Below are positions 1 to 19,131 of a stretch of 20,000 bases of DNA, piece after piece; the stretch's first letter is position 1; every line of letters begins with the position of its first letter. Origin of the DNA: an uncultured Myxococcia bacterium (GTDB lineage: Bacteria > CAZTWC01); contig CAZTWC010000001.1 of the NCBI GenBank assembly GCA_964617105.1, positions 57,938 through 77,937 of the forward strand, written 5' to 3'. Under the pieces are notes generated by a model. That model searched no databases, was not told where the DNA came from, and worked only from the letters and a program-made list of their open reading frames with translations. The translations under genes and the position numbers were made by a program.

Positions 1-3000
1 ATTTATCATAGAGTTGCAGAAGCTCAGAACCCAAAAGGTGCAGACTCCAGCCATCACCGATTATATGGTGCACAGCAATCAGCCAATAGTATTGGTCGTC
101 TTGGGCGCAGATCATCTGCATCTTGAAAAGCGGCCAGGTTTCCGGATCAAATATCTTCTTTTTCAAGTTAATAAAATACTGTTCAATTATTTCCATTTGT
201 TGTTCAGAAGAATTTCCAGCCATCTGGGGCCGTAAATCAATAAACGGCAAAATCTGGTCTGAATCAATACTCTCCATAGCGATAATTTTTTGTTTGGTTT
301 TTACCCCTTCTTTAACAAATATTGCCCTCAGCATGGAATGGCGATCAAGCAACCTGGATAGAACCTGCATAAAGAGTGGCCTATCAATTTTGCCTTTAAC
401 CGGTATAATGGCACACCATTTAGGGCAACTATCGGGCTTTAGCCTTTGGGAGAGGAGGAATCCCGCCTGGGAAGGGGTCAAATCAAAACTCTCCTCGGGG
501 TGATGTGCCGGGGGCTCGATTTGAGCCTGATTCTCTATAGATGATTCTTCTCCACTCTCTTTCTGCCGAGCCAAAAACTCCAGATGTTCTGCCAAAGCAG
601 CAATAGTTCTCTTATTATATAATGTTATGGGACGCGGCAGTACAGGAACCTGCCCCCGCAAACGCTGCAACATATCCAGGGCTAAAATGGAATCACCACC
701 CAGGGAGAAAAAATCTTCCTGATCATCTATCTGGGCCAACCCCAGAAGGTCCTGCCAAATAGCCATCAGTTTCTCTCTAAATGATCGATTTACCCCAGAA
801 CTTTTCTGAATTACCGAGGCTATAAATTGCTTGACTAAAGAGTGCCGGTCAATTTTTTGGGCTCCGGTCAAAGGAATTTCCGAGACCACCTGGAGGCGGT
901 GGGGGATCATAAAGTCGGGCAGCTGTTTTTGCAAAAAATTCAACAGGTTTTCCGCCAAATCCAGGCCGGAGTCCGGGGAAACCGGCTCTACAAAAGCCAC
1001 CAGCCATTGCCGCTTTCCATCCCGATATTCAAGCACCGCTGCTGACCTCACCTGGGCATTAGAGAGCAAGGTGGCCTCTATTTCGCTCAACTCAACCCGG
1101 TTGCCACGAATCTTTACCTGATCATCATTGCGCCCTAAAAAAATCAGGTCGCCTTTGGGGTTCGCTTTGGCCAGATCACCGGTTTTGTATAACCTGCCCT
1201 CAATTCCCGGCACTGAAACAAAAGCGGTTTTGGTCAATTGTTCGTCGGCCAAATAACCGCTGGCCAGACTCTCTCCCCCCACATAGATCTCCCCAATCTC
1301 TCCCGGCGAGCAGAGAACTCCATCTGGATTGATTAAATAGATTTTCGAACCCAGCCTGGCCTTGCCAATAGGAACCTGGGTCTCATTATCCCGGGGAGGT
1401 CCTTTTACCTCGTACCAAATGGCATTGACCACGGTTTCAGTTGAACCGTACAAATTGGCAATCCGGTGACTGAAACCAAAGCGATCGAGCCAGCGCCGTA
1501 TTTGTTCTGCCAGTACCTGTTCTCCGCCGATAAGGACCCAACGCAAATGATCCAGGTTTACTTTCCTCTGCTGGCTATTCAAAATATCAACATAGTCAAG
1601 CAGGCTCATCAACAAAGTAGGCACTGAATTCCAGATGGTGATCCGGTTTTGTTCTAAAAAGTTGACCAACCGGTCAGGATCTCGAGTAATATCTTTACCC
1701 ACCGGGTAAACTGTGGCTCCGGCTAACAGAGGTGAAAATATCTGCCGGATGGAACCGCCGAAACTGATGGAAGAGGTCTGGATAAACCTGTCCTGGGCGG
1801 TGATAGAAAAAGCCTGCTGCACCCAATCGTGAAAAATTGAGGCAGCCCGGTGGCTGACCAGGACACATTTGGGCTTGCCCGTGGTGCCAGAGGTGTACAT
1901 GCCATAGGCAATATCTTCCGGAGATACCCGGGGTAAATCGCTCAAATCTTCTGTGGGATAAATATCCAACACCTGGGACCAGGTTAGCAGGGGCTGGTCA
2001 ATACTGTCGGGTTGTTCCAGACCGTCATTATCCAGCAGTATTATCTGAGTTATCTGGGTATCCTGGTACAGAGAGGCCATCCGGGTCAATTGACGACCCT
2101 GGGTCAAAACCACTTTGACCTCAGAATGGGAGACCATATTGACTATCCTTTGGTCTGGATATTCCGGGTCTATGGGAGTATAGGTGGCGCCGCTGGCCAA
2201 GATAGCCAAAATCCCCACAATAGCCTCCACCCCGGGACTGGCCAGAATCCCTACCATATCTTTGGGTTTGACACCCTGATCTATCAAAGCCTGAGCCAGG
2301 CTTTTGGCCCGTTTTCCCAACTCCTCATAACTAATAGTTTCCTGGGCAGTTACAACGGCCGTATCTTCTGGAATCTGCCCGATTTTATCAAAAATACGTT
2401 GGTGAATCACCTCTCCGGAAGAGAGTTGCTCGGGTTGAGTCTCCAGAGAAGGTTGAAGGGTGGACTGGGATGATAAAAACCGGCCATAGTCACCGATAGA
2501 ACCCTGGCCCCTGGACTGGATAATCTTTTTCAAAAGATCCTGGTGCTGCCTGGCCAACTGCTGAATAGTCGTTTTTTTAAACAGCGATTCGGTATAATTC
2601 CAGGAGAAGTGTAAACATCCGGAGAACTCCCAGCCGATAAGACCCAATTGGGTAAACCCGGAGGCAGAACCTCCGCGCATAGATTCCACCTTCAGAGAAC
2701 CGAAATTGGAAGCAGAAGGAAAATCTGGCCAACTAAGACCGGCAGGAGTAACACCGCGCGGGCCTTGAGATTTACGATCTCCATAAATACCGGCGATCTC
2801 CAGAGAGGAAGTAAGAGGAAAACGCTGGGCCCTGGTAATCTCCTGCTTAACCAACTGAAACAGATCTGGCAGGGTTATATCTTTTTCCAGTTTGATCCGC
2901 ACCGGAAGAGAATCGGCAAAAGATCCCACCACCCTGGTAATATCGGTCACTCTGGCTTCGCGGCGAGCATTGGCCACCCTGATCACAATATCCTTTTCCC

Positions 3001-5137
3001 CAGACAATTTGTTTAGCAACAGGAGATAACTGGCAAAAATCAGATGCAAAGAGGAGATACCCATCTGGCTAGTCAAAAGAGCCAGGGCGGCTGAAGTCTC
3101 TTTATCCAAAATTTGCAGATGGATACTACAGGGACCGGTAGGCTCGGCTAAGGGATCAGAATCAAAAGGAAGCGCCAGAGCTCCCGGCGGATTCTGCAAA
3201 ACCTCTTTCCAGTACTGGCGGCTCCTTTCACCATCCTGACTGCGGGCCGAATTCTCGATAGCCGCCGCACAACTGGTAAAATTGCTCTGCAAAGCCGGTA
3301 AAAGATGGTTGCGCCCCTGCTCAAAGCGGCGGTGGATCTCCAAAAGTTCACTCACCATTATTTGGGCGCTCCAGGCATCGGCGACAATATGGTGAATATT
3401 GAACATCAGGCAATATTGGTTGGGGGCCAGGCGGCATAAAATAATCCGGTAAAGAGGCCCCTTTTCCAGGTCAAATACTCTATTTAAAACCTGCGTCTCC
3501 AGGTTATCTAAAAATTGATTTTGCTCTGCACTATCTTTAGTGCACAGATCCAGACTCTCTATTTCTGGAACGGAAAAACCGCCCTTTCGCTGAATTAACT
3601 CTCCCTGTTCCCACAAAAATATATTCTGCAAAACCTGGTGACGTTGAAAGAGTTGTTCATTGGCCTGCTCCAAATTTTCCAGAGATATGGCGCCGGTTAT
3701 TTGGATCCGCATAAAGACATAGCAGGGCATATGGGGATAAAAAGATTGGTTGGCAAAAAAAGTTTTCTGCGCGGGCAACAGGGGCAAGGGGATCTCTTTA
3801 ACCGGAGATTCCTGGGCCAATTCATTTAAATAGGCTGTCAGTTTTGATACCGTGTCATACTCGAAAAGCAAGGTATTATCCAAAGTTACCCCAAGTTCTT
3901 TTTCCAACTCTTTCACCATATCAACCGCGGTAAGCGAATTTATTCCCAGGTTGAACAGGGGGACATCAGCATCGATTTGATCTGGCGTCAGGTCTAAAGC
4001 ATCGGCCAGCATCTGGCGCACCAGATCCTCTATGCTGCCTGAGGAGATCAATTTATCCTTTTGGACCGCCAACTCACCGGAACTGGTATCTACAACCAGC
4101 TCTGAAGTTTTTTTAACCAATGGCGGTGAGAGAGCCGGAGAGGAAAAGGTGGAGCCCTCAGTGGATACTGCAGGAGATGAGGGTGGACCAACAGTGGAAA
4201 TGATATCATCCTGCAGGAAAGATGAAGCAGGATCTTCCTTAAGGTCTCGGGGATCCAGGGCCAGGCTCAGCCAATGACCGCTGGCCAAAGCCAGAGGCAA
4301 ACACTGAACTGCATCCTGGGGCAATAAAGGATGAATATTAAAAATCTCTTTCACTTTACTCTCATCCATGGTGGCGATCATGCCTACCTTTTGCCACAGA
4401 GACCAGGCCAGGGAGAACCAGGGTTTTCCCTGGCTTTTTTTCCGGCCGGCAAAGATGTTCAAAAAAGCATTGGCTGCCCCATAGTCGGCCATCCCCTTTG
4501 AAAACCTGGCAGATAATTGAGTAAAGGCGCCTGAAATGGAAGATATCAAGAGCACGAAACCATAATCTCTATTGGTAAGGGCTGCCTCCAGGTTCAAAGT
4601 TCCCAACACTTTTGGCTTAATAACCTTCTCTATTTCTGAAAGATCTTTTTTCAGCAAAGATCCGGCAGAGATAAGGCCTGCGCCCTGAAAAACACCCTGA
4701 ATTTTGCCATACTTTTGAAAAAGTTTAGCTATCAGTCCCTGTAAAGCCTGAAAATCGAGAATATCTACTTGAAAATACTCTGGCTGGGCACCCAGTTTCT
4801 GCAACTCTTCTAAATTGGCTCCCATCTCTTCTGCTGATCGCCGTCCAGTGAGGATAAGCACCGGATTATCAACCTGGCGGGCCAGATATTTGGCCAGGTA
4901 AAAACCGACTCCGCCGCTGCCGCCGAGAATCAGATATACTGACTTGGGAGAGGTTTGAAAAAAGTCACTCTGCCCAGTTCCAATTGGTAAAGATGTAACA
5001 ACCGGTGTCAGATTACCGCTGTCCCTAATTGCTGCCGGTGCAAAAGAACGATTTTTTAGGCCTTCCTTTATCTGAACAGCCGCTTTTTCCAGTTGCAACT
5101 CTTCCCAGTTCACCTCCAGGTCGATCACCTGGCCGGT
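1..5137 (-). CDS. Hybrid PKS-NRPS megasynthase, downstream part (KR-ACP-C-A-PCP-C...), running off the left edge; not in the ORF track
   Basis: Manual minus-strand translation from 5137 gives no stop down to the edge, and the ORF track lists no closed ORF in this frame. KR: GGSGGVG (4924-4904), PKV, SS, YGAAN. ACP: LGINSL (Ser 3937-3935). C1: HHIVADAWS (from 3394). A: YTSGTTGKPK (~1897), NLYGSTE, YKTGDL, GRNDDQVKIRGNRVELSEIE, PLTGAQKIDR. PCP: FFSLGGDSI (Ser 691-689). C2: LTPSQ, RHSMLRAIF, HHIIGDGWS (HHIIGDG 70-50). Confidence 0.95.
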
Positions 5138-5247
5138 NNNNNNNNNNNNNNNNNNNNNNNNNNNNNNNNNNNNNNNNNNNNNNNNNNNNNNNNNNNNNNN
5201 NNNNNNNNNNNNNNNNNNNNNNNNNNNNNNNNNNNNNCCTGGCCGGT
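5128..5247. repeat. 10-bp direct repeat CCTGGCCGGT on both sides of the assembly gap
   Basis: Identical CCTGGCCGGT at 5128-5137 and 5238-5247, each abutting the N run. Confidence 0.9.
5138..5237. other. Scaffold gap (100 N) within the KR structural subdomain of the megasynthase
   Basis: Exactly 100 N, a typical placeholder length. The apparent frame change and the stop at 5125 in the ORF track follow from the arbitrary gap size. Confidence 0.97.
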
Positions 5248-8200
5248 GATACAACTATTGGCAGTGACAATATGCAGCGGCGCCTTTAGTTGGGCTGATA
5301 TAACCCCTTTTAAAAATGAGCGCAGCCGGGAAATATCCTCCGTCAACTGGGAATAATCCTGATCTGAAGAGGAAAATTTCATGGGCCCAAAATTGCCCAG
5401 ATAAATAACTCCCGCAATTTTCAATGGGCCCAGAGAGCTTATTAACCATCTGAAATGATCACTGTTTTTCGGATCCAGAATAAAAGTATACTCTGAATCA
5501 CGAATAAAGGCATCGCCCTGAAACAGGGCAAAAACCTCTCTATGAGGATGGCCATCCCCTTTTATCTGATGGGCCAATACCTGGGCGAGACCCTGCTGAT
5601 CTGCCATAATTAGCCAGGCCCCCTCTGAAAAAGAGCCTGAAGATGATTCTGGTGCTGCTTGCCACTCTATCTGGTGCAGTAAACTCTGGATCCGCTCCTC
5701 TCCTGATGGAGATTTCTGAGTACTCAAAAATTCCTGGCCGCCAATCTGGATGCCCTCCCCTTGAGCCTCTTCTGCCAACATTAAGTCCTCATCCTGTAAA
5801 AATTCGGTTTTATACTGACGACCCAAAAAAGGGATTGAAGGGATTGAAAAAGAGTTTATGGGTTGGGAAGGTAAAATCGGGGTCCAGTTCAGGTTGAAGC
5901 CCTGGGTCCACAAACTGCCCAGCACGCTTAAAAATTGCTTAAGTTGCTCCGCCTGAACCTTTGCCTCCCTGACCGCTGGCTCCTCTTGAGCAGAGGACCC
6001 GGGTGCCCGGCTTAGAAAAAAACTTCTATTTCTATCTTTGCCTGATAACAGGGATCTGCACAGAGAGGTTAAGGTGATCCCCGGTCCAATCTCTAAAAAA
6101 ATATCCGCTTTTTCCTGGGTTAGCCGGGAAAAGGCCTGGGTAAATTGAACTGGTTTACTAATATGGCGGCACCAGTAAGTTTGATTCAATTCATCTTGAC
6201 TGCACAGCTCCGCCTTAACCGTGCTCACCAAAGGGGTTTGTAAAGAACCAATTCCCTCCACCTGCTGCAAAAACCGGTCAAAATCCTCCAGCATGGGCTC
6301 CATAAGCGGCGAATGGAAAGCATGGGAAACTTCCAGTTTTTTATACCTTATCTTTTGCTGGGATAAAAGTTGGGCTATCTGGGCCAACTCTTTTTCACCT
6401 CCTGATAGTACCAATTGGTTGGCTGAGTTATAAGCGGCAATAGAGACCCGCTGGCTAAAAGGCTCTACTATAGGCGACAATTGATCGTGGTTGGCAAAAA
6501 CCGCCATCATCTGACCCGCTTCTGGGAGATCCTGCATCAATTGGCCCCGTTTTTCAGCGATCTTCATGGCAGTTTTGGCATCCAGGGCTCCACCTACTGC
6601 GGCTGCGGAAATCTCCCCCACACTATGTCCCAAAACATAGGCTGGTTTAATGCCCAACTCTATAAGCATCTGGGCCATGGCCACCTGGAAAGCCACCAAA
6701 AGAGGTTGGGAGATGGAAGTCTGCTTGATCTGTTGGGCAATAGCATCCAGATTGATACAACTGTCTAAGAGAGTATCTTGCAGATGGCTATAACCGCATA
6801 GTTGTTGAAAATATTGGTTAAAAGAGGGTAAATATTTAAAAAAACCGCTCCCCTGGCCGAGAAACTGGGCTCCCTGGCCGGGAAACAGAAATGCCACCCT
6901 CAATACCCGTCTTTGGTCAACTCCATCTCCGCATATCCACTGGTAATTGGCGGCTGAACCAGGAGTCTGACGGCTGACCGCCACAGAAGATGAACAGTCC
7001 TTCCGCTCAGATTCCTGGTCAAGGACGCCAGCCAACTGTTTCAGCGATTCAGATATATCCTCTTGTTCACAAACTGCCTCCAGGGGGAGCGCAGTACGCT
7101 GGCTGAATCCGGTTCGTCCTTTCGCCATTTGGGAACATAGATCCTCTATGGAAATAGGGATATCCTGTTCAGCCATGGATTGAGCGTAACCCTGCAAATG
7201 TTCCCGATCAGGAGCGCTCAAAGTAAATAAATGGTAAGGCCAACTTGAGATTGCCGGTTTTAAGGTCCGAACCGGGGCCTCTTCCAGCACCAGATGGCAG
7301 TTGGTTCCGCCAAAGCCAAAAGAGTTGATTCCCGCTCTCAACGGTGCGCTGCCTCTCCATTTTTCCAAATCGGTCTGAATCCGTAAGGGAGTTTTAAGAT
7401 CCTTTAGTTGAAAATCCTCTACTGAACAGTGAAGCGACGGGGGCAAAATCTGGTGCTTCAGGCAAAGCAGCATCTTTATAAAACTGGCTACTCCCGCTGC
7501 TCCCAATAGATGGCCTATATTTGATTTAACCGAGCCGATGGGAATGCTGTTTTGTGGCTGACCCGAAAAAAACTTGCTCAGCGAACGCAGTTCTATAGGA
7601 TCTCCCAGCGGAGTTCCGGTTCCATGGGCCTCAATAGCGCTAATAGTAGCAGGATCAATATTTGAATTGGCATAGGCTTTCTCCAGCACTGCCACCTGTC
7701 CCGGAAGATGGGGGGCCATTGCTCCTACCGAGCGGCCATCGTTATTGATGGCACTGCCCTTGATTACTCCCCAGATATGATCACCTTCGGCCAGCGCCCG
7801 GCTCAGAGGCTTCAACAACACCAGACCAGCGCCCTCTCCTGGCACAAAGCCATCGGCCTTTCGGGAAAAGGGGCGGCTTTTACCAGTTTTGGAAAGCGCA
7901 CCCGCCTGGCCAAAATAGCGGTGGGCCACCGGGGTCAAATTTAGATTAATCCCCCCCGCAATAGCCAAATCACACTCTCTGGTCAATAGGCTCTGAATCG
8001 CCAGGTGAATAGTCACCATCGAGGAAGAGCAAGCTGTATCAATGGCCATGGATGGGCCGGTAATATTGAGTTCATGGGAGAGCCTAGATGCCAGCATGTT
8101 TAACAGATTATCAACTAAAAGCAGAGGATGAAGAGAGGGGGTGGAGGAGATCCGTTCCATCTCCTGTTTAAATTGCTGCCTGGTATCTTGATCAAGGGAG

Positions 8201-10479
8201 TTGAAAATACTGCTTTTGGCCAATCGAGCAAAAGCCTCTTGACGATGCAAGGGAGTGGTTAACAACTCCTGGTAAGGGACCTGGTTAGAGCCAATATACA
8301 CACCTATAGATTGATTTTGGCGCCGCTTTTCTCCGTGAAAACTGGTCTCCAGCAACTCCAGCCCCAACTCCAGCAAAACTCGCTGCTGCGGGTCCATCAC
8401 CCGGGCTTCTTCAACATCAACGGAGAAGAAACTGTTATCAAAAGAGTAAGGATCAGTCAAGAAACTACCCCATTTACAATCCAGTTGATCTATGGTGCCA
8501 TCCGAAAATCTCCCCTTAGGGATATCCTCTATCAGATCAGCCCCACTGGCGAGATTGTTCCAGAAATCTTCGGGAGTAGAGGCTTGTGGAAAACGACAGG
8601 CAACTCCAATAACCGCTATATCTACTGTTTCAGTATACCTGGTATCCTCTTTTTTCATCGATTCGATCTTTGCTCTCTTTTTAATGATAAAAGTCTCAGC
8701 ATCTTTTGCATCTCTCTGGGAGGGGAAATGGTCTGGCAATATACTTTTATTGTTTTGGCTGTCCAAATATTTTTTAGCCAGCACATAGCGGCGAATTTTG
8801 CCGCTAGAGGTTCTGGGGATCTTTCTATTGTCAATCAAAAACACCTGTTGGATGGTGATGCCCAACTCCCCTTGCAGCCGCCTTTTCACCTTAAAGGGCA
8901 ATTGAACATGATCTACCCCTTCTGGTTCGGGACAGATAAACACCAAAATCTCCTCGCCATCTATCTCTCCGGCCTGGGCAGTGGAGCAGGCTACCGACAG
9001 ATGGACCCCCTCTACCCTATTGGCCACCTCTTCCAGGTCTTGAGGAAAAACATTGCGGCCGGCAAAATTGATCATCTCTTTGATCCGGCCGCAGATAGCC
9101 AACCTTCCCTCTTTGATAAAACCTATATCACCGGTTCGCAACCAGCCATTGTACCTGGTCTGTAAAGTGGCATTAGCATCCTGAAAATAGCCGGCAGATA
9201 TATTTGGCCCTTTAACCAGAATCTCTCCAGTTCCATCTCCAACCACATCTCTATTCTCCTGATCAACTATTTTTACCTGGCAGCCATCCAAAAGGGGACC
9301 CACGCTAACTACCTGGATCTCCTCTTCTTCTGCCCCATTAATTTCATCACCGGCAACCTGATCCGCCTGGTGCTTTGACACTGCCTCTTCTGTAACCTCA
9401 ATTACCTCTCCCCTTCTTTGCAGCGGTTCTTTTAACAAACTATGGTAATGAAACCCTTTTCCCCGGGCCGCAAAAGATACTCCCACCGAGGCTTCTGCCA
9501 ATCCATAACAGGGCAAAATAGCCTGGCGCCGAAAACCAACAGCGCTAAAGCGTTGGCTAAATTTTTTTAAAACCTTTAGGTTAATTACCTCCGCTCCCAC
9601 CACAAAAATTTCTACAAAACTCAAATCCCAATTATTATGGTCAATATCCTTTATCTGGTTGACAATATAGTGCAAAGCAGTATTGGTGACCGACAGCATG
9701 GTGGCTCGATTTTGGGAGGCCAAATTAAGCCAGTTTTGCGGATTTCTCAAAAACTGGGCCGGGGTCATTTTGATTTGACGGCAGTTGCTGTAAAGAGGAA
9801 GCAGGTGGCAGCCTACCATGCCCAAATCGTGATAGTGGGGGATCCAACTCAACTCCACATCCTTCTCATCCATATTGGACCTGGTCTGCATCTGATGCAG
9901 GTTGGCCAGGATATTCTCCTGACTTAACAAAACCCCTTTAGGTGCGCTGGTGCTGCCCGAGGAGTATTGGATCAGGGCCGGATCCTGAGGTTTAACCTCC
10001 TGATTAAAGAATAGTTGACTGCTCTCTTTTAGAGACTCCAGATAGATAAACTGTTGCTCAAGCCCCTTAATTGGCGGGATATCCTGGGAGATTATAACTT
10101 TGGGACCTTCTAATTTTTCCCAGACATTTATTAGTTTACGCTGGAGGTCCACTTTGCCGGGACCAATAGGGGCAGGTAAGGGCACCGGGATAAACCCGCC
10201 ACATTGACAGGCCCAAAAGGCGGGATAAAAATCAGCCGGCCTCTCAAAAACCAGGGGTAAAGGCGAGCCTGGTTTAACCCCGGCATCCAATAGTCCGGCG
10301 GCAATTCTCTGAGCCTGGTCAAAGAGGCTGGCCAGAGTTTGCTCAACCAAATTACCATTTTGGTTCCAATAGAGTATGTTGCCGGCCTGGCCAATCTTAT
10401 CAGCATCGGCGGCACGGGCCTTTAACATCTGGGACAGGGAGTTAAACTGGTCCATAATTGATCTATCTTTCATTTGCAA
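5238..10479 (-). CDS. Hybrid PKS-NRPS megasynthase, N-terminal part: fatty acyl-AMP ligase-like (FAAL/MycA-type) - KS - AT (malonyl-type) - start of KR
   Basis: FAAL: QYSSGSTSAPKG, SWIPHYHDLGMVG, YGLAEA followed by an insertion, WLRTGDIG, PRTSSGKIRR. KS: DIAVIGVACRFP, MDPQQR, DTACSSS (Cys ~8030), EAHGTGT, KSNIGHL, GINSFGFGGTNCHLVLEEAP. AT: FPGQGAQ, GHSVG (6630-6616), HAFH (6324-6313). No DH motif before the KR structural part (HQIEW...WLIMAD). The start may be TTG 10479 or ATG 10473. Confidence 0.95.
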
Positions 10480-11638: not shown

Positions 11639-12268
11639 ATGTTAACCAAATTAGTGATGAATTTTGTTTTAATCGGGGCCGAATGGGTTTTGTGGCTCCT
11701 GTTTATCCTTAGTTTCCTCTCCATTGCCATTGTTATCGAGAGAGCGATCTTTTTTGTCCAGCGAACCCTGGGGGTCAAGACCATTAGAGATAAAATAGTG
11801 CCTCTGCTTAAGGAGCATAAGTTTGACCAGGTGCTGGTTATTGCTAAAAGTAAATCCACCACTGAAGGTAATATTATTGCCGCGGGAATCAAGTCCAGCA
11901 TGACGGAAAACCCCGGGGCGGTAGAGCGCCGGATGAGCGGAACCATGGCCCTGGAACAGGAAAAACTGGAGCGCTGGCTCTCCTTTTTGGGTACCCTGGG
12001 CAACAATGCCCCCTTTATTGGACTATTTGGCACAGTGCTGGGGATTATCAAAGCTTTTCATGATCTGTCTATGGACACCCAGGGCGGAGCCAGTGTGGTG
12101 ATGACGGGAATATCGGAAGCCCTGGTGGCCACAGCGGTGGGGCTGTTTGTAGCTATCCCGGCGGTGGTGACTTTTAATATATTCCAGCGGGCCATTGCCC
12201 GAAAAATGGCCAACAGTGAAGCTTTGGCCGAAGCCTTGCTGGCCGCCCTCAAAGGAAATAAACAGTAA
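11639..12268 (+). CDS. exbB: ExbB/TolQ (MotA/TolQ/ExbB proton channel family)
   Basis: LGTLGNNAPFIGLFGTVLGIIKAF and GISEALVATAVGLFVAIPA motifs, three hydrophobic segments, context with exbD/tonB/TBDR. Confidence 0.92.
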   Translation: MLTKLVMNFVLIGAEWVLWLLFILSFLSIAIVIERAIFFVQRTLGVKTIRDKIVPLLKEHKFDQVLVIAKSKSTTEGNIIAAGIKSSMTENPGAVERRMSGTMALEQEKLERWLSFLGTLGNNAPFIGLFGTVLGIIKAFHDLSMDTQGGASVVMTGISEALVATAVGLFVAIPAVVTFNIFQRAIARKMANSEALAEALLAALKGNKQ

Positions 12269-12744
12269 TGCAACGGTTTAGAAAATTAAAAAATAATAAT
12301 CTAATCACTGATATCAATATCACTCCTCTGGTGGATATCACCCTGGTTTTGCTGATTATCTTTATGGTGACCGCCACTTATATCGCCCGCCTGGCTATCC
12401 CACTAGAGTTGCCCAAAGCCGGGTCTGCGGAGCAGATGGAGGATAGTTTATTGGCGGTCACCCTGGGCCAGGAAAACAAACTCTATCTTAACGGCCAGGA
12501 AGCCCGGGATAGAGATCTGGAACAGGCGGTGGAAAATTTTCAAAAAGATAACAAAAAGATCCGGGTGCTCATATCAGCCGATCGGCGGGTGAGTTTTGAG
12601 CGGTTTGTTAATGTTCTTGACCGGTTACAAATTTTAGGCGTTATACATCATGCCATAAATACCGTCCCCTTTGACCAGGATGAGTTGATTGAAGATGATA
12701 ACCAGAACAGGGATTCCAAAGAGGATAACAAGGTGAAAGAGTGA
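12268..12744 (+). CDS. exbD: ExbD/TolR biopolymer transport protein
   Basis: DINITPLVDITLVLLIIFMV signature with the TM Asp, LELPKA, ISADRRV. TAATG overlap with exbB. Confidence 0.92.
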   Translation: MQRFRKLKNNNLITDINITPLVDITLVLLIIFMVTATYIARLAIPLELPKAGSAEQMEDSLLAVTLGQENKLYLNGQEARDRDLEQAVENFQKDNKKIRVLISADRRVSFERFVNVLDRLQILGVIHHAINTVPFDQDELIEDDNQNRDSKEDNKVKE

Positions 12745-13556
12745 AGAGAGGACGCTGGCCCCTATCCTTTGTTGGCTCTTTGCTGTTGCACCTGGCATTT
12801 GTGGTGATTATGCTTTTCTTGCCCAGAGCAGAGATAAAAAGCAACCATAAAATGGCGGTGATGGTGGTAAAAAAAGATCTGCGCCCCAAAAAAGAACCGC
12901 CGAAAAAAAAGAAACCCGATAAAAAACCGGAACCACCCAAAAAGATAGAGCCGAAAAAAAAGAAAAGGCCTCCCAGGGTAAAATCTCCCAAAAAGATGGA
13001 GAAAAAGGAGCCGGAAAAACCGGTGAAGCCCAAAGAGCTGACTCCCCAGCAGAAACCAAAACCCAAAAAGCCTTTGCCCATCATCCCCAACTTTGGTTTG
13101 AAAATGGAGGCTGCTACTGCGGCCGGCGGTTCAGTGTCGGTGGCGGTTTCAGGCGGCACCACCGTGGCTGATCCAAAAATCGAGGGCAACAGCAACAAGC
13201 CACGAGCCATAAAGGGGGAGCCCAAACAGCCAGTGGCCCAGGACTCTTTGGATGAGGATGGAGTTCCCTCCGCCACCATGCACCAGGTAAAAAAGCAGGC
13301 CCGGGTAATCCAGCGGGTGATGCCAGATTATCCGGAAAAACTGCGCCGGCTGGAAATCGAGGGGAAGGTGAAACTGGAATTGCGCATCGATGAAAAGGGA
13401 GTGGTTACCCATATCAAGGTTTTGAAAAGCCTGCACACTTTGGCTGACCAGGAAGCCATCAAGGCGGCCCGCAAGATGAAGTTCTCCCCAGCCACAGTGG
13501 ATGGCCGGGCAGTGGCAATCAAAATACCCTACACCTTTACATTTGTATTAGAGTAA
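12741..13556 (+). CDS. tonB: Energy transducer TonB
   Basis: N-terminal TM with SLLLH, Lys/Pro/Glu-rich spacer (KKEPPKKKKPDKKPEPPKK), C-terminal TonB domain (PDYPEKLRRLEIEGKVKLELRIDEKGVV...FSPA...G). GTGA overlap with exbD. Confidence 0.9.
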   Translation: MKRGRWPLSFVGSLLLHLAFVVIMLFLPRAEIKSNHKMAVMVVKKDLRPKKEPPKKKKPDKKPEPPKKIEPKKKKRPPRVKSPKKMEKKEPEKPVKPKELTPQQKPKPKKPLPIIPNFGLKMEAATAAGGSVSVAVSGGTTVADPKIEGNSNKPRAIKGEPKQPVAQDSLDEDGVPSATMHQVKKQARVIQRVMPDYPEKLRRLEIEGKVKLELRIDEKGVVTHIKVLKSLHTLADQEAIKAARKMKFSPATVDGRAVAIKIPYTFTFVLE

Positions 13557-13584
13557 ATTTTTTTAAGAAAGAATAGTTTTCCAT

Positions 13585-16221
13585 ATGCTGTATTCAATTT
13601 CTCGTGTTTTGACTTTTTGGCTGCTGTTTTCCCTACTGCCCCTCTCCTCTGGATTGGCCTTTGAAGGAGTGCGTCAAGAGGAGGTGAAGGAGCCGCCCAA
13701 GCCCAAACTAACTAAACCACCCAAAATGCTGAAATTTATTGAAGCCGTCTATCCCGCCACTGCCTTGAAAGATAAAACGCAGGCCTCGGTGGAGATGCTG
13801 ATTACTCTTGACAACCAGGGTAATGTTACGGATGTGAAGGTGACCAAACCGGCGGGACTGGGTTTTGACCTGGCTGCCATGGAGGCTATCAAAAAATTTA
13901 AATTCTCTCCAGCAGAGGTGGATGGAAAGCCCTCCCCTATCCAAATCATCTATGTGTATAATTTTATTATCAAAGAGGAGGTGAAAAAACCAGATTTCTC
14001 CCGACCTGGCCTGGGTACGATCTCAGTTAAGGGGCGGGTCCGGGAGGCTGGCACCCGGCTGGGAATCGCCGGCGCCGCAGTTTCAACCGGCAAAACCATG
14101 GTGTCGGTAACTGCCGACAAGAGAGGTTTTTTCCAGATTCGTGGCCTGGCGCCGGGAAAATACCGTCTGCTGGCCTCCAGCCCGGAGCACCAAAAACTGG
14201 ACACCCCCATAGAGGTCAAAGAGGGGATGGAAACCCAGATTGATCTGTATCTACAGCCCCTGGTGGAAAACCCTTACGAAACCGTGGTTCGGGGGGAGCG
14301 CTTCAAACAGGTGGTCACCCGTTACACGGTGCAGCAACGGCAGTTGGTTACAGTACCCGGCACCTTTGGAGATCCCATCCGGGTGGTGCAAAACCTGCCA
14401 GGCTCCTCCCGGGCTCCCGGAATTCTGGGGGTAATGCTGATTAGGGGCTCATCCCCCCAGGATTCCAAAACCTTTATCGATGGGGTGGAGGTGCCGCTGC
14501 TATTTCACTTTTTAGGCGGCCCATCCATTATCAATGCCCAGATACTGGACAAAATCGACTACTATCCAGGTAACTTTTCAGCCCGGTACGGCAACGCTTC
14601 GGCCGGCATTATTGATGTTAAGACTAAAAATACCTCTCCGGAAAGGTGGCGAGGCAGCACCCAAATAGATTTTTTACACTCTGGAGCCTATATTGAAGGG
14701 CCGGTAACCGACAAACTATCCTTTGCCCTGGCGGGAAGGCGCTCCTATATCGACCTGCTCCTCCCCTCGGTGCTGGAAGCCGCAGGCCAGGAATCACTTA
14801 CCGTAGCCCCCTTCTATTGGGATTACCAAATTAAAACCGACTATTCTCTGCCTGGAGATGACCGCTTATCCCTGTTCTCCTTTGCCTCCCACGACAGCCT
14901 GACGGTGGTGGATACCACCGGCTCAGACACCGAAGATTCCTTTTCTTTAAAAACCAGAATCGGCTTTTACCGCACCTATGTAAAGTGGCTGCACAATGTT
15001 TCGGATCAATTTATTTTTACTCTGCAGCCCTTTTACGCTTACTCGCTGTTTCGAATGGAACTCCAGGATATTAACATTGATAACAACCTGCTGGAGTGGG
15101 GAGCACGCAGCGAAGTTGAGTGGATTCCATCTAAGCAGTTCAATCTGACTTTGGGCATGGATGCCAGATATAGCAATCCCAAAATCAAAATGAAAGTCCC
15201 CGCTTTTACCGACACCAAATGGCCTGGCACCTGGACCGACCGGGGCGGCAGCAACTTTTCCGATGAGATGACAACTATTGTCCGAACCATAGACGGTTAT
15301 TTGCTGGCTCCATACCTTACCGCCACTTGGAAGATTTTGGGCAATCTGCAATTGATTCCCGGTTTAAGGGCCAATTATAACTATTACCATAGTGGCGGAA
15401 ACCGCTTTTGTCTGGACCCCCGTCTGGTGATCCGCTGGATACTGGGGCCTGAAACAGTAATCAAAGCGGGGGCTGGCCTATACAGCCAACTACCCGATTT
15501 TCAATATTTTGATGAGCAGTACGGCAATCCGGATATCCCCTTTCAGAGAGCGGAGCAATACGGATTGGGGATAGAGCAAAAACTAACTTCAGTTATCGAC
15601 CTGGACCTGCAGGCTTTTTATATCTATCGCTACGATATCCCCTGGATGTCTGATCAATATCGAGGAGAAGGGGAAAACCGGCGGCGGGAAAGATTTGCTC
15701 CCACGGGCCAGGCTTTTGCCTTTGGCATGGAAGCCATGCTCAAACACCAGGTGACCAGGAGTTTTTACGGTTGGGTGGCCTATACCCTATCTCAATCCAA
15801 GCAAAAAATGAGAGGCGATCTACCCTGGCGGCTGACCACTTTTGATCAGACCCACATCCTCACGGTGGTGGGCAGTTGGAAACCGGTAGCCGGCTGGGAG
15901 ATGGGAATCCGTTTCCGTCTGGTTTCCGGTAACCCCGATACACCAGTCACAAGCAGCACCTTTGATGCTGACACCCAAAACTATAAACAGTTGACTGGCG
16001 GAATATCATCAATTCGAAATCCCCTGTTTAATCAACTGGACTTTCGGATAGAGAAAAGTTGGACCTTCCAGTATTGGGTTTTATCCCTGTACCTGGATAT
16101 TCAAAACGTTTACAATGCTGAAAACCAGGAAGCCACCCGCTGGGACTATCGGTTTAAATATTCTGGGGCTGTACCCGGTCTGCCAATTTTGCCAACTTTG
16201 GGAATCAAGGGGAGTTTTTAG
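13585..16221 (+). CDS. TonB-dependent outer-membrane receptor with N-terminal TonB_C-like and carboxypeptidase-regulatory-like domains
   Basis: Signal peptide; TonB_C-like domain (aa ~40-126); Ig/CarboxypepD-like domain (VKGRVRE...ADKRGFFQIRGLAPGKYRL); plug (PGTFGDPIRVVQNLPG...IRGS...FIDGVEVP...YGNASAGIIDV); barrel features (DPRL, DIQNVYN) and a C-terminal Phe. Confidence 0.9.
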   Translation: MLYSISRVLTFWLLFSLLPLSSGLAFEGVRQEEVKEPPKPKLTKPPKMLKFIEAVYPATALKDKTQASVEMLITLDNQGNVTDVKVTKPAGLGFDLAAMEAIKKFKFSPAEVDGKPSPIQIIYVYNFIIKEEVKKPDFSRPGLGTISVKGRVREAGTRLGIAGAAVSTGKTMVSVTADKRGFFQIRGLAPGKYRLLASSPEHQKLDTPIEVKEGMETQIDLYLQPLVENPYETVVRGERFKQVVTRYTVQQRQLVTVPGTFGDPIRVVQNLPGSSRAPGILGVMLIRGSSPQDSKTFIDGVEVPLLFHFLGGPSIINAQILDKIDYYPGNFSARYGNASAGIIDVKTKNTSPERWRGSTQIDFLHSGAYIEGPVTDKLSFALAGRRSYIDLLLPSVLEAAGQESLTVAPFYWDYQIKTDYSLPGDDRLSLFSFASHDSLTVVDTTGSDTEDSFSLKTRIGFYRTYVKWLHNVSDQFIFTLQPFYAYSLFRMELQDINIDNNLLEWGARSEVEWIPSKQFNLTLGMDARYSNPKIKMKVPAFTDTKWPGTWTDRGGSNFSDEMTTIVRTIDGYLLAPYLTATWKILGNLQLIPGLRANYNYYHSGGNRFCLDPRLVIRWILGPETVIKAGAGLYSQLPDFQYFDEQYGNPDIPFQRAEQYGLGIEQKLTSVIDLDLQAFYIYRYDIPWMSDQYRGEGENRRRERFAPTGQAFAFGMEAMLKHQVTRSFYGWVAYTLSQSKQKMRGDLPWRLTTFDQTHILTVVGSWKPVAGWEMGIRFRLVSGNPDTPVTSSTFDADTQNYKQLTGGISSIRNPLFNQLDFRIEKSWTFQYWVLSLYLDIQNVYNAENQEATRWDYRFKYSGAVPGLPILPTLGIKGSF

Positions 16222-17157
16222 ATGATTTTAGATAGATTTTTCACGGTCATCCTGTTGGGAATAGTGTTTCTGATTTCCGGATGCAATTTGCCCCAATTTG
16301 AGCCGGCTCACCTGGTAAAGGACCGCCGTATCCTGGCAGTACGGGCAGAGCCACCAGAAGTACATCTGAATATCAAACTAAACCAGGGGAAACTCGACCT
16401 TTCCTCCATAAATCTGGATAAGATAGAGATGCCCTCTCTAAGCCTGTTGTTAGTGGAGCCGGCCGGTGCCATCGGTCCGGTCGCCTGGTCTGCTGTTGCC
16501 TGCCCCACCAATCGTGAATTTCGCTGTGATGGGGAGGCCACCAAAATGGAGTTGGGTCAGGGAGAGGATAAACCTGAAGATATCCGGATCAAACTAAAGG
16601 TAAACCAGTCGCTATTGATGGCCTGCGCCAAAGCGGATCCCCTGGCTGTGCTATCGGGCATTGCGGTTCAGGTTTCCATCAAGATCGGAGAGGGAGAGGA
16701 GGCTCTCTACGCCTCCAAGGATGTGGTTTTCGGATACCCTTTTCCAGCCGGCCGCACCCCCAATACCAACCCGGATAGCACTAAACTGCAAGTGGATCAA
16801 CAGGAATGGAAATCCAACATGAAGCCCGTAATAGAACCTGGACAAAAAATGAAGATAGATCCCATGCCCCGGGAAAATTCCCAGGAAGCCTATCAACTGG
16901 CCACTTTTAGCGGTTCCACCGAAAAATTCCAGGAGCGTTTTAAATATATCTTTTATGCTACGGCGGGTAAATTTTCCCCCGCCAAGACCGGTGGCCGCGA
17001 TTTTTTAGAGGAAGATACCCAGGATCCTTTCCACACCTTTTTTGCTATTCCCAAAGAGTATAAAGAATCAGGCCCCATCCGCTTTTGGATGATAATTGAC
17101 GATCAGCGCGGCGGCATTAACTGGCTGGAACGCGAAATTGAGGTGAAACCCAGGTAA
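16222..17157 (+). CDS. Putative lipoprotein partner of the TonB-dependent receptor
   Basis: Hydrophobic signal ending in lipobox ISGC (Cys21). ATG immediately follows the receptor's TAG. RILAVRAEPPE near the N-terminus and DQRGGINW near the C-terminus. Confidence 0.75.
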   Translation: MILDRFFTVILLGIVFLISGCNLPQFEPAHLVKDRRILAVRAEPPEVHLNIKLNQGKLDLSSINLDKIEMPSLSLLLVEPAGAIGPVAWSAVACPTNREFRCDGEATKMELGQGEDKPEDIRIKLKVNQSLLMACAKADPLAVLSGIAVQVSIKIGEGEEALYASKDVVFGYPFPAGRTPNTNPDSTKLQVDQQEWKSNMKPVIEPGQKMKIDPMPRENSQEAYQLATFSGSTEKFQERFKYIFYATAGKFSPAKTGGRDFLEEDTQDPFHTFFAIPKEYKESGPIRFWMIIDDQRGGINWLEREIEVKPR

Positions 17158-17241: not shown

Positions 17242-19131
17242 ATGTTTTTAATGGCCACCACTGCCGGAGCCAATGAGAACGCCACCCTAATCACCATTAT
17301 TAAGGGAGTGCTGGGATCTCCCGGTAATATTCTTAAGGGTTTGATGGTGATCTTCAAACTGATCAAATATATCTTCAATCACAACACCCAGACCGGGTTC
17401 GATTTGGCCGGCTCTTTTGCCAGCCTTTTGACCGGCCTTACCAACTCTTTGATAACCCAGTTGCTCTTCGCCATACCGGCGGTCTCCACCTGGGTAGCAG
17501 AAAAACTGGTGGAAGAAGAGGCGGAAGAGGCTATCCCCTATGTTGGCTGGGCCTTCAAAATTGTAGCCAATGCAGCGGCTGCCGTCGATATGGCTGCCAC
17601 TACTGCTGAGTATTGTGCTCTCCCCTATGTGATTGAAAACACCATCTCCCTGGCCCACCAAGTTACGGTTACCGTGAAAAAAGACCCCCTTGATTCTCAG
17701 TTCCCCAGGGCAGCCACCAGCGTGGTGCTGAGTGTTTATGCCGGTAAAAATCCGGTGACCCTGACCAAGAAACTGACCGATACAGATTTAGCCAAATCCT
17801 CTTTGACCTTTGTGGTAAACGGTGTGCCTGCTACTGCCAAAACAGAAAAAGTGGTGGCGGTCTTTTATGATGATGTAACTGACTCTCCCGGTTTTGGAAT
17901 TACGCTGGGCTATGGAGAAGGAACCATTTTGAACAAAATAGTAGATGGCAAAACTCCCATTACCTCCTTTGAGATTAAAGAGAATCCAGTGCCTATCAAT
18001 GCCAACACCAAATTTGAACACAAGTTCAAATTAACCAAAGCCGATGGCAAATACGCCTGGGATGACAAAGCGGCAAAACCGGTTTATGAAGCCCTGGATA
18101 CCGGCGGCAAAGAGGGTACCCTCAATGAACTGAACAACATTACCCTTTGGGTACCAGGCGGTATGCTGGGATACTCCTGGCGGGCTGCCTCCAAAGGGAT
18201 GAAAGAGTGCGGCGGTGATGGGAGCGGCTCCCTCTATATGTTCAATAATGTAAATACGGTAATGGGCAAAGAGGACATAGGGCAAAAATTTTCGGGCTGC
18301 GGCTTCTCCCACCCTATGGCCATGGCCTATGACATGACCGCCCTGGGCGATCAGGCGGGTGGACGCCACTTCTATCTGGATGCCTACAATACCGATCCAA
18401 AAATACCCCAGTATCATCTGCGGAAAATAACCCTGGATCAAAACAATGACTTAAATGTGTGGAGCCTGAATAAAGAGAAAGATAAATCCTGGGGTATGTT
18501 CACCATGCCCATTAACCGGATGGCTGTTACCCACAACGGCTATGTGATAGGGATCTCCTCCGAATGGCACCGTATCGGTATTCTCAGACTTCCCGAAAAA
18601 GCCCTCTCCATGGATGACTACAAAAACAACGAACCCTTTGTGGCCCGGAGTTTGCTCACTGGAGGTAAAGGGAAAAATAACGATACCCTGCTCCACACCC
18701 CGGTGGCCCTCACCGTGAGCAAAGATAACGATCTGCTCATCCTGGAAGATAGCGGTACTTTTGCGGTTAAAGCGTTCTCCTGCGAAGGTAAGCCCAGAAA
18801 AATCTTCAAAGACAAATCAACTTCAAGACTGGTGTTGTCAAAATCTAAAGAGGATGCCAAAACCACTAACGTTAAGATGCTGGATATCTCTATTGATCGG
18901 GCCGGCCTATTCTTTGTGCTCTCTCAAACCGGTCATGGCACCTCTGCTGCTGACCATCATCTGGATATCTACGATATGGCGGGAAATCATATCAACCGCA
19001 ATAGTGGTATCACTGTGGCCCGCATGGTGGTTGATCCCTTCCGCAATCTTTACTCATTGAACTACGAAAAGATAAAAACCAGTTCAATAGTGGAGCCTTC
19101 GGTAAGTATTTGGCTACCAAGTATTAAGTAG
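17242..19131 (+). CDS. Uncharacterised protein: hydrophobic helical N-terminal region, beta-rich middle, C-terminal NHL-like beta-propeller; possibly 5'-truncated
   Basis: 629-aa ORF. NHL-like blades LLHTPVALTVSKDNDLLILEDSG...VKAFSCEGKP and MLDISIDRAGLFFVL...LDIYDMAG. No evident RBS or signal peptide. Confidence 0.65.
   Translation: MFLMATTAGANENATLITIIKGVLGSPGNILKGLMVIFKLIKYIFNHNTQTGFDLAGSFASLLTGLTNSLITQLLFAIPAVSTWVAEKLVEEEAEEAIPYVGWAFKIVANAAAAVDMAATTAEYCALPYVIENTISLAHQVTVTVKKDPLDSQFPRAATSVVLSVYAGKNPVTLTKKLTDTDLAKSSLTFVVNGVPATAKTEKVVAVFYDDVTDSPGFGITLGYGEGTILNKIVDGKTPITSFEIKENPVPINANTKFEHKFKLTKADGKYAWDDKAAKPVYEALDTGGKEGTLNELNNITLWVPGGMLGYSWRAASKGMKECGGDGSGSLYMFNNVNTVMGKEDIGQKFSGCGFSHPMAMAYDMTALGDQAGGRHFYLDAYNTDPKIPQYHLRKITLDQNNDLNVWSLNKEKDKSWGMFTMPINRMAVTHNGYVIGISSEWHRIGILRLPEKALSMDDYKNNEPFVARSLLTGGKGKNNDTLLHTPVALTVSKDNDLLILEDSGTFAVKAFSCEGKPRKIFKDKSTSRLVLSKSKEDAKTTNVKMLDISIDRAGLFFVLSQTGHGTSAADHHLDIYDMAGNHINRNSGITVARMVVDPFRNLYSLNYEKIKTSSIVEPSVSIWLPSIK

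Follow-up and report, generated by a model that had tools for sequence, protein, structure and literature searches.

The left half of a 20,000-nt stretch of DNA from an uncultured Myxococcia bacterium (assembly GCA_964617105.1, contig CAZTWC010000001.1, positions 57,938 to 77,937 of the forward strand; hereafter the window) encodes a hybrid polyketide synthase (PKS)-nonribosomal peptide synthetase (NRPS), which raises the question of what this megasynthase makes and how it releases its product. A first-pass annotation had described a single assembly line made up of fatty acyl-AMP ligase (FAAL), ketosynthase (KS), acyltransferase (AT), ketoreductase (KR), acyl carrier protein (ACP), condensation (C), adenylation (A), peptidyl carrier protein (PCP), and second C domains, and Pfam matches and motifs bear out this order as far as the window reaches. 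We found that the gene runs on beyond the window edge and ends in a homologue of the putative terminal amidation domain (TAD). Read across a scaffold gap and the window edge from Pfam, motif, and TAD homology, the complete order is FAAL-KS-AT-KR-ACP-C-A-PCP-C-TAD. We lean, with some reserve, toward the view that this enzyme is predicted to convert a fatty acid into an exported lipid-like conjugate; domain order, motifs, and family membership were read directly, and from them we infer the product and the release chemistry.

The synthase lies on the minus strand, takes up window positions 1-10479, and is most likely one gene extending to the left of position 1. The minus strand carries the open reading frames (ORFs) 5125..10479 and 2..5254, the second of which is still open where the window stops, and the only overlap between them is a run of N. 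Their readable flanking frames, 5238-10479 and 2-5137, translate into an upstream piece of 1,747 aa (P0001) and a downstream piece, within the window, of 1,712 aa (P0002). A plain ORF listing returns both halves, so the earlier statement that the gene is largely hidden from ORF calling is not borne out. The frame runs on without a stop through 700 further codons to the left of position 1 (one edge-straddling codon plus 699 aa at L002:17836-19935, minus strand), completing the second C domain (C2) and adding a TAD-like domain of ~400 aa before the stop. The extension that the first-pass annotation had proposed thus recovered the rest of C2, the TAD, the stop codon, and an adjoining MMPL transporter gene. 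The visible protein comprises 4,159 residues (1,747 + 2,412), so the length of ~3,400 aa given before was an underestimate, and C2, previously taken as the last domain, is not the terminus because a domain related to TADs and to the acyl-ACP reductase AAR follows it.

The two halves are separated by a run of exactly 100 N, over which the two reading frames are offset by 101 nt. The run therefore breaks the frame and is best regarded as a placeholder, not a measured length. Both flanks are colinear with the KR structural subdomain of seven full-length homologues, in agreement with the earlier proposal that they are consecutive parts of one KR. Between the landmarks “VT” and “V.DL” these homologues hold 26-37 residues, compared with 8 + 3 visible here, so that ~24 codons probably lie within the gap, a figure close to the one obtained from a more distant homologue. 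The same 10-mer stands on both flanks (window 5128-5247), each copy reading T-G-Q. A simple overlap join at this 10-mer was rejected, as it would delete a helix, with a consensus of roughly P.QAA...L..E.P...G, that 7/7 aligned homologues possess; moreover, each T-G-Q fits its own alignment position, so that the repeat seems to be no true overlap. In the assembly, which consists of 489 contigs, 76 gaps are 10 N long and three are 100 N long. Overlapping flanks were seen in two of the three 100-N gaps (10 and 55 nt), and the overlap was 0-2 nt in all 76 of the 10-N gaps; the other 100-N gap, with 55-nt identical flanks, is located at G000:C2:13038-13137. A stop or frameshift inside the gap appears unlikely, and a gene boundary very unlikely because of the colinear flanks. 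The full-length synthase would be about 4,180 residues long, encoded by one intact-looking gene.

The domain that closes the protein was identified by comparison with solved structures. Pfam gave nothing significant (best E 0.035), and the only family-model match, a weak one, was to the N-terminal part of PigE (NCBIfam NF053554, E 4e-12). A phmmer search against solved structures matched CarI TAD chains 9e4x/9e4s, titled “TAD from Carmabin Biosynthetic Pathway,” at E 6.6e-32. An AlphaFold2 model built with a 36-sequence alignment reached a mean confidence (pLDDT) of 91, compared with 37 without the alignment, and has the macrodomain-like N-terminal domain and Rossmann C-terminal domain expected of a TAD. 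With this model as a Foldseek query, ten TAD chains ranked first (9e4s, 9e4x, 9e4u, 9e50, and 9e56; TM-score 0.77-0.83), followed by the cyanobacterial AAR (6jzu, TM-score 0.62-0.65). The landmarks TTG149-151 and GxGxxG183-188 (G183/G185/G188) are present, and Cys342 stands at the catalytic position, which is Cys in 35/36 aligned sequences. Glu209 occupies the place of CarI Asp2102, the NAD-selectivity position (Asp in 34 of the 36 sequences, Glu in two), and the loop DDSFP274-278 carries Phe in place of the Gly of DDSGP. On the strength of this alignment and predicted fold, the terminal domain is a TAD homologue with an AAR-like fold.

According to the preprint on these domains (bioRxiv 10.1101/2024.10.28.620694), CarI, VatR, and HcaD each terminate in a putative TAD, and their products carry a primary amide at the terminus. 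There the domain binds NAD(H) beside an invariant Cys within reach of the PCP phosphopantetheine, an acidic residue of the CarI TAD excludes NADPH, AAR is NADPH-dependent, and the authors propose several possible mechanisms. Our domain shares with these TADs from the carmabin, vatiamide, and hectoramide pathways its ~400-aa C-terminal position in a megasynthase, the fold, TTG, GxGxxG, the acidic NAD residue, the DDSxP loop, and the Cys, at an identity of only 24-26%. The CarI-type upstream line is a multi-module peptide synthetase, whereas here one FAAL-PKS module and one NRPS module precede the TAD. AAR and the N-terminal region of PigE have in common with the domain a two-domain fold, a Cys beside the nicotinamide site, and acceptance of carrier-bound thioesters. 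The domain studied here, fused to its synthase, is 16-17% identical to AAR, which makes fatty aldehydes as a free-standing enzyme dependent on NADPH; in PigE the corresponding domain is fused to an aminotransferase, not to an NRPS.

We next asked how widely this ending and this domain order occur. An HMMER search with the TAD against 1.84 billion representative proteins returned 675 proteins at E<=1e-3, 510 at 1e-10, and 108 at 1e-30, with the TAD at the extreme C terminus of long proteins in almost all of the 675 matches. Using the domains of our protein as BLAST queries, we labeled those of 159 relatives, 147 from this search and 12 from another; the set excludes the window protein itself and six PKSs that are unrelated, and the labeling misses weak carrier domains. 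A C-TAD ending was found in 79/159 and a TAD directly after a carrier or other domain in 57, the remaining 23 consisting of a TAD alone in short, probably fragmentary, sequences. The full order FAAL-(ACP)-KS-(AT)-KR-ACP-C-A-PCP-C-TAD is present in 20 of the 159, 16 of them with the AT, and a split form, KS-KR-(ACP)-C-A-(PCP)-C-TAD, in 23. All five full-order proteins checked with Pfam (P0024, P0050, P0041, P0045, and P0034) showed this order with three carrier domains, and they are colinear with our protein at 35-46% identity. Six homologues compared in detail, P0024 (MBN1944640.1, from a Bradymonadales metagenome-assembled genome (MAG)), P0050, P0041, P0045 (locus L084, Planctomycetota MAG), P0062 (Chloroflexota MAG), and P0065 (WP_413805908.1, Streptomyces sp. 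OE57), have the same order, are colinear, and are 31-46% identical to it, the closest also sharing its A-domain pocket GGRTLGLVN. They carry a loading ACP between FAAL and KS, which our protein lacks, bear no annotation beyond “amino acid adenylation domain-containing protein,” and sit in neighborhoods that differ and hold no MMPL gene.

Named sources of the relatives include Bradymonadales, Chloroflexota, Melainabacteria, and Sericytochromatia MAGs and Streptomyces sp. OE57; related loci also came from Planctomycetota, Myxococcales, and “Deltaproteobacteria” MAGs. These loci were gathered with the whole proteins P0041 and P0024 as queries, the terminal domain alone having retrieved no related loci in genome contigs, and a word-index search of long proteins with the AT-KR linker returned only distant PKSs. 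The phylum of this genome has no second representative among 199,900 species genomes, and no TAD was found in the 40 other genomes searched, which are related to it only at the domain level. Annotations of the relatives are all generic, with a product name on none of the 159, and our literature search gave nothing on a C-TAD ending or on this order beyond the TAD preprint, whose supplementary figures S2-S9 may show C-TAD. No characterized cluster with this order turned up in these protein and literature searches, in agreement with the first-pass annotation, which had not recognized the architecture as that of a characterized cluster. The novelty is lower than that annotation implied, since the search for same-order proteins that it had suggested yielded the 20 relatives above. 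Judged by these comparisons, the architecture is not unique; it is that of a recurrent, widely distributed, uncharacterized family.

The FAAL assignment of the N-terminal domain comes from its best solved relatives, which are FAALs matched over the full length (3pbk at E 2.2e-64, 3kxw, and FadD23/32/28); matches to CoA ligases are confined to the C-terminal part of this adenylation domain. The KS-AT-KR-ACP segment, interrupted by the gap inside its KR, reads as a type I modular PKS module, with Pfam matches over their cut-offs and the full motif set (DTACSSS, HGTGT, and NIGH in the KS; GGSGGVG and YGAAN in the KR). The HAFH motif of an AT denotes malonyl specificity. Pfam detected no dehydratase, enoylreductase, methyltransferase, or thioesterase family in the two window pieces; all catalytic motifs listed in the first-pass annotation are in place, and, as it had noted, a dehydratase is missing. 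FAAL-primed KS-AT(malonyl)-KR modules that lack a dehydratase extend the starter by two carbons to a 3-hydroxyacyl thioester.

A dedicated carrier directly downstream of the FAAL is lacking. Pfam found no PP-binding match in the upstream piece, and the 65 residues between the FAAL A10 motif and the start of the KS are too short for a loading ACP. This spacing is 114-164 aa in 12 of 14 other proteins measured and 1,214 in an unrelated PKS. In the family member P0057 (3,724 aa) it is 33 residues, which likewise leaves no room for a loading ACP, indicating that the ACP-less form is not unique to this genome.

The NRPS part contains a complete C-A-PCP elongation module: the first C domain (C1) has its HHxxxD motif, the A-domain core scores over its cut-off (TIGR01733, 378.8 vs 317.4 bits), and the PCP has its serine. 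The A domain is atypical, as had been suggested. An HMMER alignment places a Gly at the position of the amino-binding Asp235, where LgrA has the Asp of FD(x)S in both of its A domains; the second of these is the nearest solved A domain. In an alignment of 100 A domains (this protein and 99 relatives), the pocket reads GGRTLGLVN(K). The Asp235 column is Gly in 25 rows, 24 rows (the closest homologues among them) have the code GGR[TS]LGLVN, and 59 have Arg at position 239; a second pocket group reads DAR..GLIN. With Asp235 replaced by Gly and an Arg lining the pocket, the substrate is likely not an ordinary α-amino acid.

C1 and C2 are the only C domains in the genome, which also has two phosphopantetheinyl transferase (PPTase) genes on other contigs. 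By sequence, the C domain before the TAD resembles ordinary elongation C domains. Its second His is retained in 68/69 relatives, and for this reason C2 looks catalytic. The coordinates of all domains are given in Table 1.

Table 1. Features of the megasynthase gene in window coordinates, listed in the direction of translation
Feature	Position	Strand	Evidence
Gene start TTG 10479 (ATG two codons later) and FAAL-like domain, residues ~28-576	8752..10479	-	Pfam AMP-binding 47-432
Ketosynthase and C-terminal extension	7123..8622	-	Pfam ketoacyl-synt 620-895, Ketoacyl-synt_C 904-1018, KAsynt_C_assoc 1029-1119
Acyltransferase, malonyl-type motifs	6064..6891	-	Pfam Acyl_transf_1 1197-1472; GHSVG, HAFH present
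KR structural subdomain, first part, ending at gap	5238..5598	-	Alignment with seven homologues up to “VT”
Scaffold gap in KR structural subdomain	5138..5237	.	~24 codons probably missing, from homologue alignment
KR structural subdomain, remainder, and catalytic subdomain	4391..5137	-	Pfam KR 67-249 of downstream piece
ACP, sole PKS carrier	3827..4024	-	Pfam PP-binding 372-437; serine motif GINSL
First condensation domain, C1	2516..3787	-	Pfam Condensation 451-874; HHIVAD present
Adenylation domain	854..2377	-	Pfam AMP-binding 921-1296, AMP-binding_C 1352-1428
PCP	563..775	-	Second PP-binding stretch (Pfam); GGDSI at residue 1480
Second condensation domain, C2, N-terminal part	1..484	-	PF00668 at G000:C1:57372-58421; HHIIGD present

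The first-pass annotation had noted no tailoring or export genes upstream. Directly downstream, outside the window, lie a transporter gene of the MMPL/HAE3 type, within the resistance-nodulation-division (RND) superfamily, and a major facilitator superfamily (MFS) gene. The MMPL/HAE3 gene (781 aa, L002:15510-17855, minus strand) overlaps the synthase stop by 20 nt. It scores 134.7 bits with Pfam MMPL (cut-off 20.5) and matches TIGR00921 (HAE3) at E 5.4e-66, its 223 bits being under the 351.9-bit cut-off. The MFS gene follows on the other strand. On the upstream side, a gene for a TtcA-like tRNA thiolase precedes the synthase by 17 nt on the same strand and separates it from a divergent exbB-exbD-tonB-TonB-dependent-receptor-like operon (11639-16221).

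The last gene of that operon, window 13585-16221 on the plus strand, encodes an 878-aa protein with a TonB C-terminal domain at its N terminus plus CarboxypepD_reg and Plug domains, an unusual fusion for a TonB-dependent receptor, and comes after exbB, exbD, and a separate tonB. Directly behind it are two plus-strand ORFs of 311 and 629 aa without a Pfam family (window 16222-17157 and 17242-19131). Elsewhere on the contig, a 1,704-aa tetratricopeptide-repeat protein (L002:6798-11912, minus strand; G000:C1:44798-49912) ends beside a 10-N gap and is followed by an ORF of the endonuclease/exonuclease/phosphatase family.

At the loci of four full-length homologues, we found two genes for class-III aminotransferases immediately upstream of the synthase together with an Iso_dh-family gene (20214-21557, minus strand) in L005; a PPTase and an Iso_dh-family gene (14684-16126, plus strand) in L083; an enoyl-CoA hydratase and an AcrB-type pump in L084; and a GNAT gene in L081. 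A gene of the isocitrate/isopropylmalate dehydrogenase family thus adjoins the megasynthase in 2/4 loci (L005 and L083). The dehydrogenase and aminotransferase neighbors in L005 and L083 may hint at an unusual A-domain substrate or at processing of the product. From the genes compared, the MMPL coupling appears specific to this genome.

Taken together, the domains suggest the following route. The FAAL would adenylate a fatty acid, and the acyl group would be passed to the KS via the module's single ACP, a priming route proposed because a loading ACP is absent. The KS, malonyl-type AT, and KR would then yield a 3-hydroxyacyl-ACP two carbons longer, as expected from intact motifs and the missing dehydratase. 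C1 would join this chain to whatever the A domain loads, perhaps a small hydroxy acid, possibly anionic, so that an ester would form, or alternatively an acid activated at its side-chain carboxyl. The latter idea comes from the aminoadipate-activating domain of ACV synthetase, in which Asp235 is likewise absent and position 239 is Arg. Release would fall to the conserved C2-TAD pair, by means of the invariant Cys and the NAD(H) site of the TAD, with an amide as the most likely terminus and an aldehyde as a less likely one; we favor the amide because of the far closer kinship to the CarI TAD and the NAD-type acidic residue. Finally, the translationally coupled MMPL/HAE3 pump may export the product to the envelope.

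The overall logic is reminiscent of the mycobacterial FadD32-Pks13-MmpL3 system, in which a type I PKS receives its starter from a FAAL and the lipid leaves through an RND pump of the MMPL family. The likeness is one of analogy: the partial model matches to Pks13 (487.8 bits) and FadD32 are accompanied by scores far under the cut-offs (Pks13 2100 bits, MmpL3 1400 bits), and Pks13 has a different domain order, no NRPS module, and no TAD.

Several observations weigh against the proposed route to an amidated, exported conjugate. At its start, the FAAL model NF006624 scores 323 bits against a curated cut-off of 600, close to the 315.7 bits of a CoA-ligase subfamily model, and without a loading ACP the priming route is unproven. 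Part of the KR is hidden by the gap, which might, though improbably, contain a frameshift, and what the A domain loads is guessed from its pocket. At the end, CarI-type TADs adjoin the last PCP; in our protein the two are separated by a full C domain with an intact HHxxxD. In a FastTree tree of 153 TAD segments (seven dropped for aligning over <300 residues), all 55 carrier-linked TADs fall into one clade (support 99) together with nine TAD-alone sequences, and not one of the 78 C-linked TADs, ours among them, belongs to it. With the C domain in between and the tree separating the two types, the function of the TAD may differ here. Amidation by TADs is itself a hypothesis because catalysis has never been reconstituted: the preprint reports no substrate release in vitro under any condition tried (bioRxiv 10.1101/2024.10.28.620694). 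As to context, no member of the family has a known product, the neighborhoods of the four full-length homologues differ from one another, and tblastn with the MMPL, MFS, 357-aa, SpoU, and TtcA neighbors gave no match in 81 related loci.

A serious rival to amide release, although we consider it unlikely, is that the same assembly line ends in a thioester reductase of the AAR/PigE type. The chain would be transferred to Cys342 and reduced by NAD(P)H to an aldehyde, perhaps then transaminated or further reduced, leaving a lipid aldehyde, amine, or alcohol as the product instead of an amide. The AAR-like fold (TM-score 0.65 to 6jzu) is in line with this, as is the PigE match, the only one to a family model. 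The PigE study argues for a thioester reductase of the AAR type, with a conserved Cys, in this region (PMC8341465), and the aminotransferases of L005 match the reductase-plus-transaminase pairing of PigE and of TamH, the latter as described in PMC9594044. The domain is, however, far closer to the CarI TAD (TM-score ~0.8 and the phmmer match above) than to AAR. It also keeps the acidic residue that, according to the preprint, excludes NADPH from CarI, whereas AAR depends on NADPH (bioRxiv 10.1101/2024.10.28.620694). Aminotransferase neighbors occur in only 1/4 loci and not at this genome's locus, and reduction gives the conserved C2 no role. Release as an amide is therefore the outcome that we prefer.

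The other two alternatives are both improbable. One holds that the product is not an envelope lipid but an amphiphilic metal chelator (lipo-siderophore) imported by the adjacent TonB system. The divergent operon fits this idea, a 3-hydroxyacyl group and a hydroxy-acid unit could in principle bind metal, and the preprint records aspartate β-hydroxylase domains in many TAD-ending hybrid clusters, for which its authors suggest siderophores (bioRxiv 10.1101/2024.10.28.620694). Yet our protein has no hydroxylase, hydroxamate-forming, or catechol-forming domain, ttcA stands between the synthase and the TonB operon, the TonB-receptor family is absent among 83 flanking ORFs of the four homologous loci, and the transporter that is coupled to the synthase is of the lipid-type MMPL/HAE3 class. 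The other alternative, if anything the more remote, is that the gap conceals a stop, a frameshift, or a gene boundary, and that the locus holds two genes, a pseudogene, or a mis-scaffold. The contents of the gap are unseen, the 100 N break the frame, and the 10-mer is repeated on both flanks. Nevertheless, the flanks are open up to the N run and correspond to adjacent KR parts that are continuous in the seven colinear homologues, a gene boundary within the KR subdomain would be unprecedented among the 20 full-length relatives, and the downstream motifs are all intact. One uninterrupted synthase with an exported lipid-like product thus remains our preferred explanation.

A bolder extension of this explanation, which we put forward tentatively and regard as doubtful, is that FAAL-PKS-NRPS-C-TAD proteins are one-protein pathways for an undescribed class of envelope lipids in at least six distant lineages, with the C-TAD pair as a new release device. 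The lipid would consist of a 3-hydroxy fatty acid and a small non-amino acid unit with a modified terminus, and its release would be distinct from that by a thioesterase, a classical R-domain, or a PCP-linked TAD. The version in this genome, without a loading ACP and coupled to an MMPL gene, might then be the minimal form.

The protein is a variant within two known groups, FAAL-primed PKS-NRPS hybrids and TAD-terminated synthetases, and its gene is one orphan biosynthetic gene among very many, with dozens of look-alikes. Its C-TAD ending, its A domain without the amino-binding Asp, and its missing loading ACP are departures from textbook assembly-line rules. The gene would also give a tractable substrate for a TAD-type domain, the chemistry of which is unproven even in the carmabin system. 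Expression of this single gene should reveal the product of a widespread, unstudied family of hybrid megasynthases.

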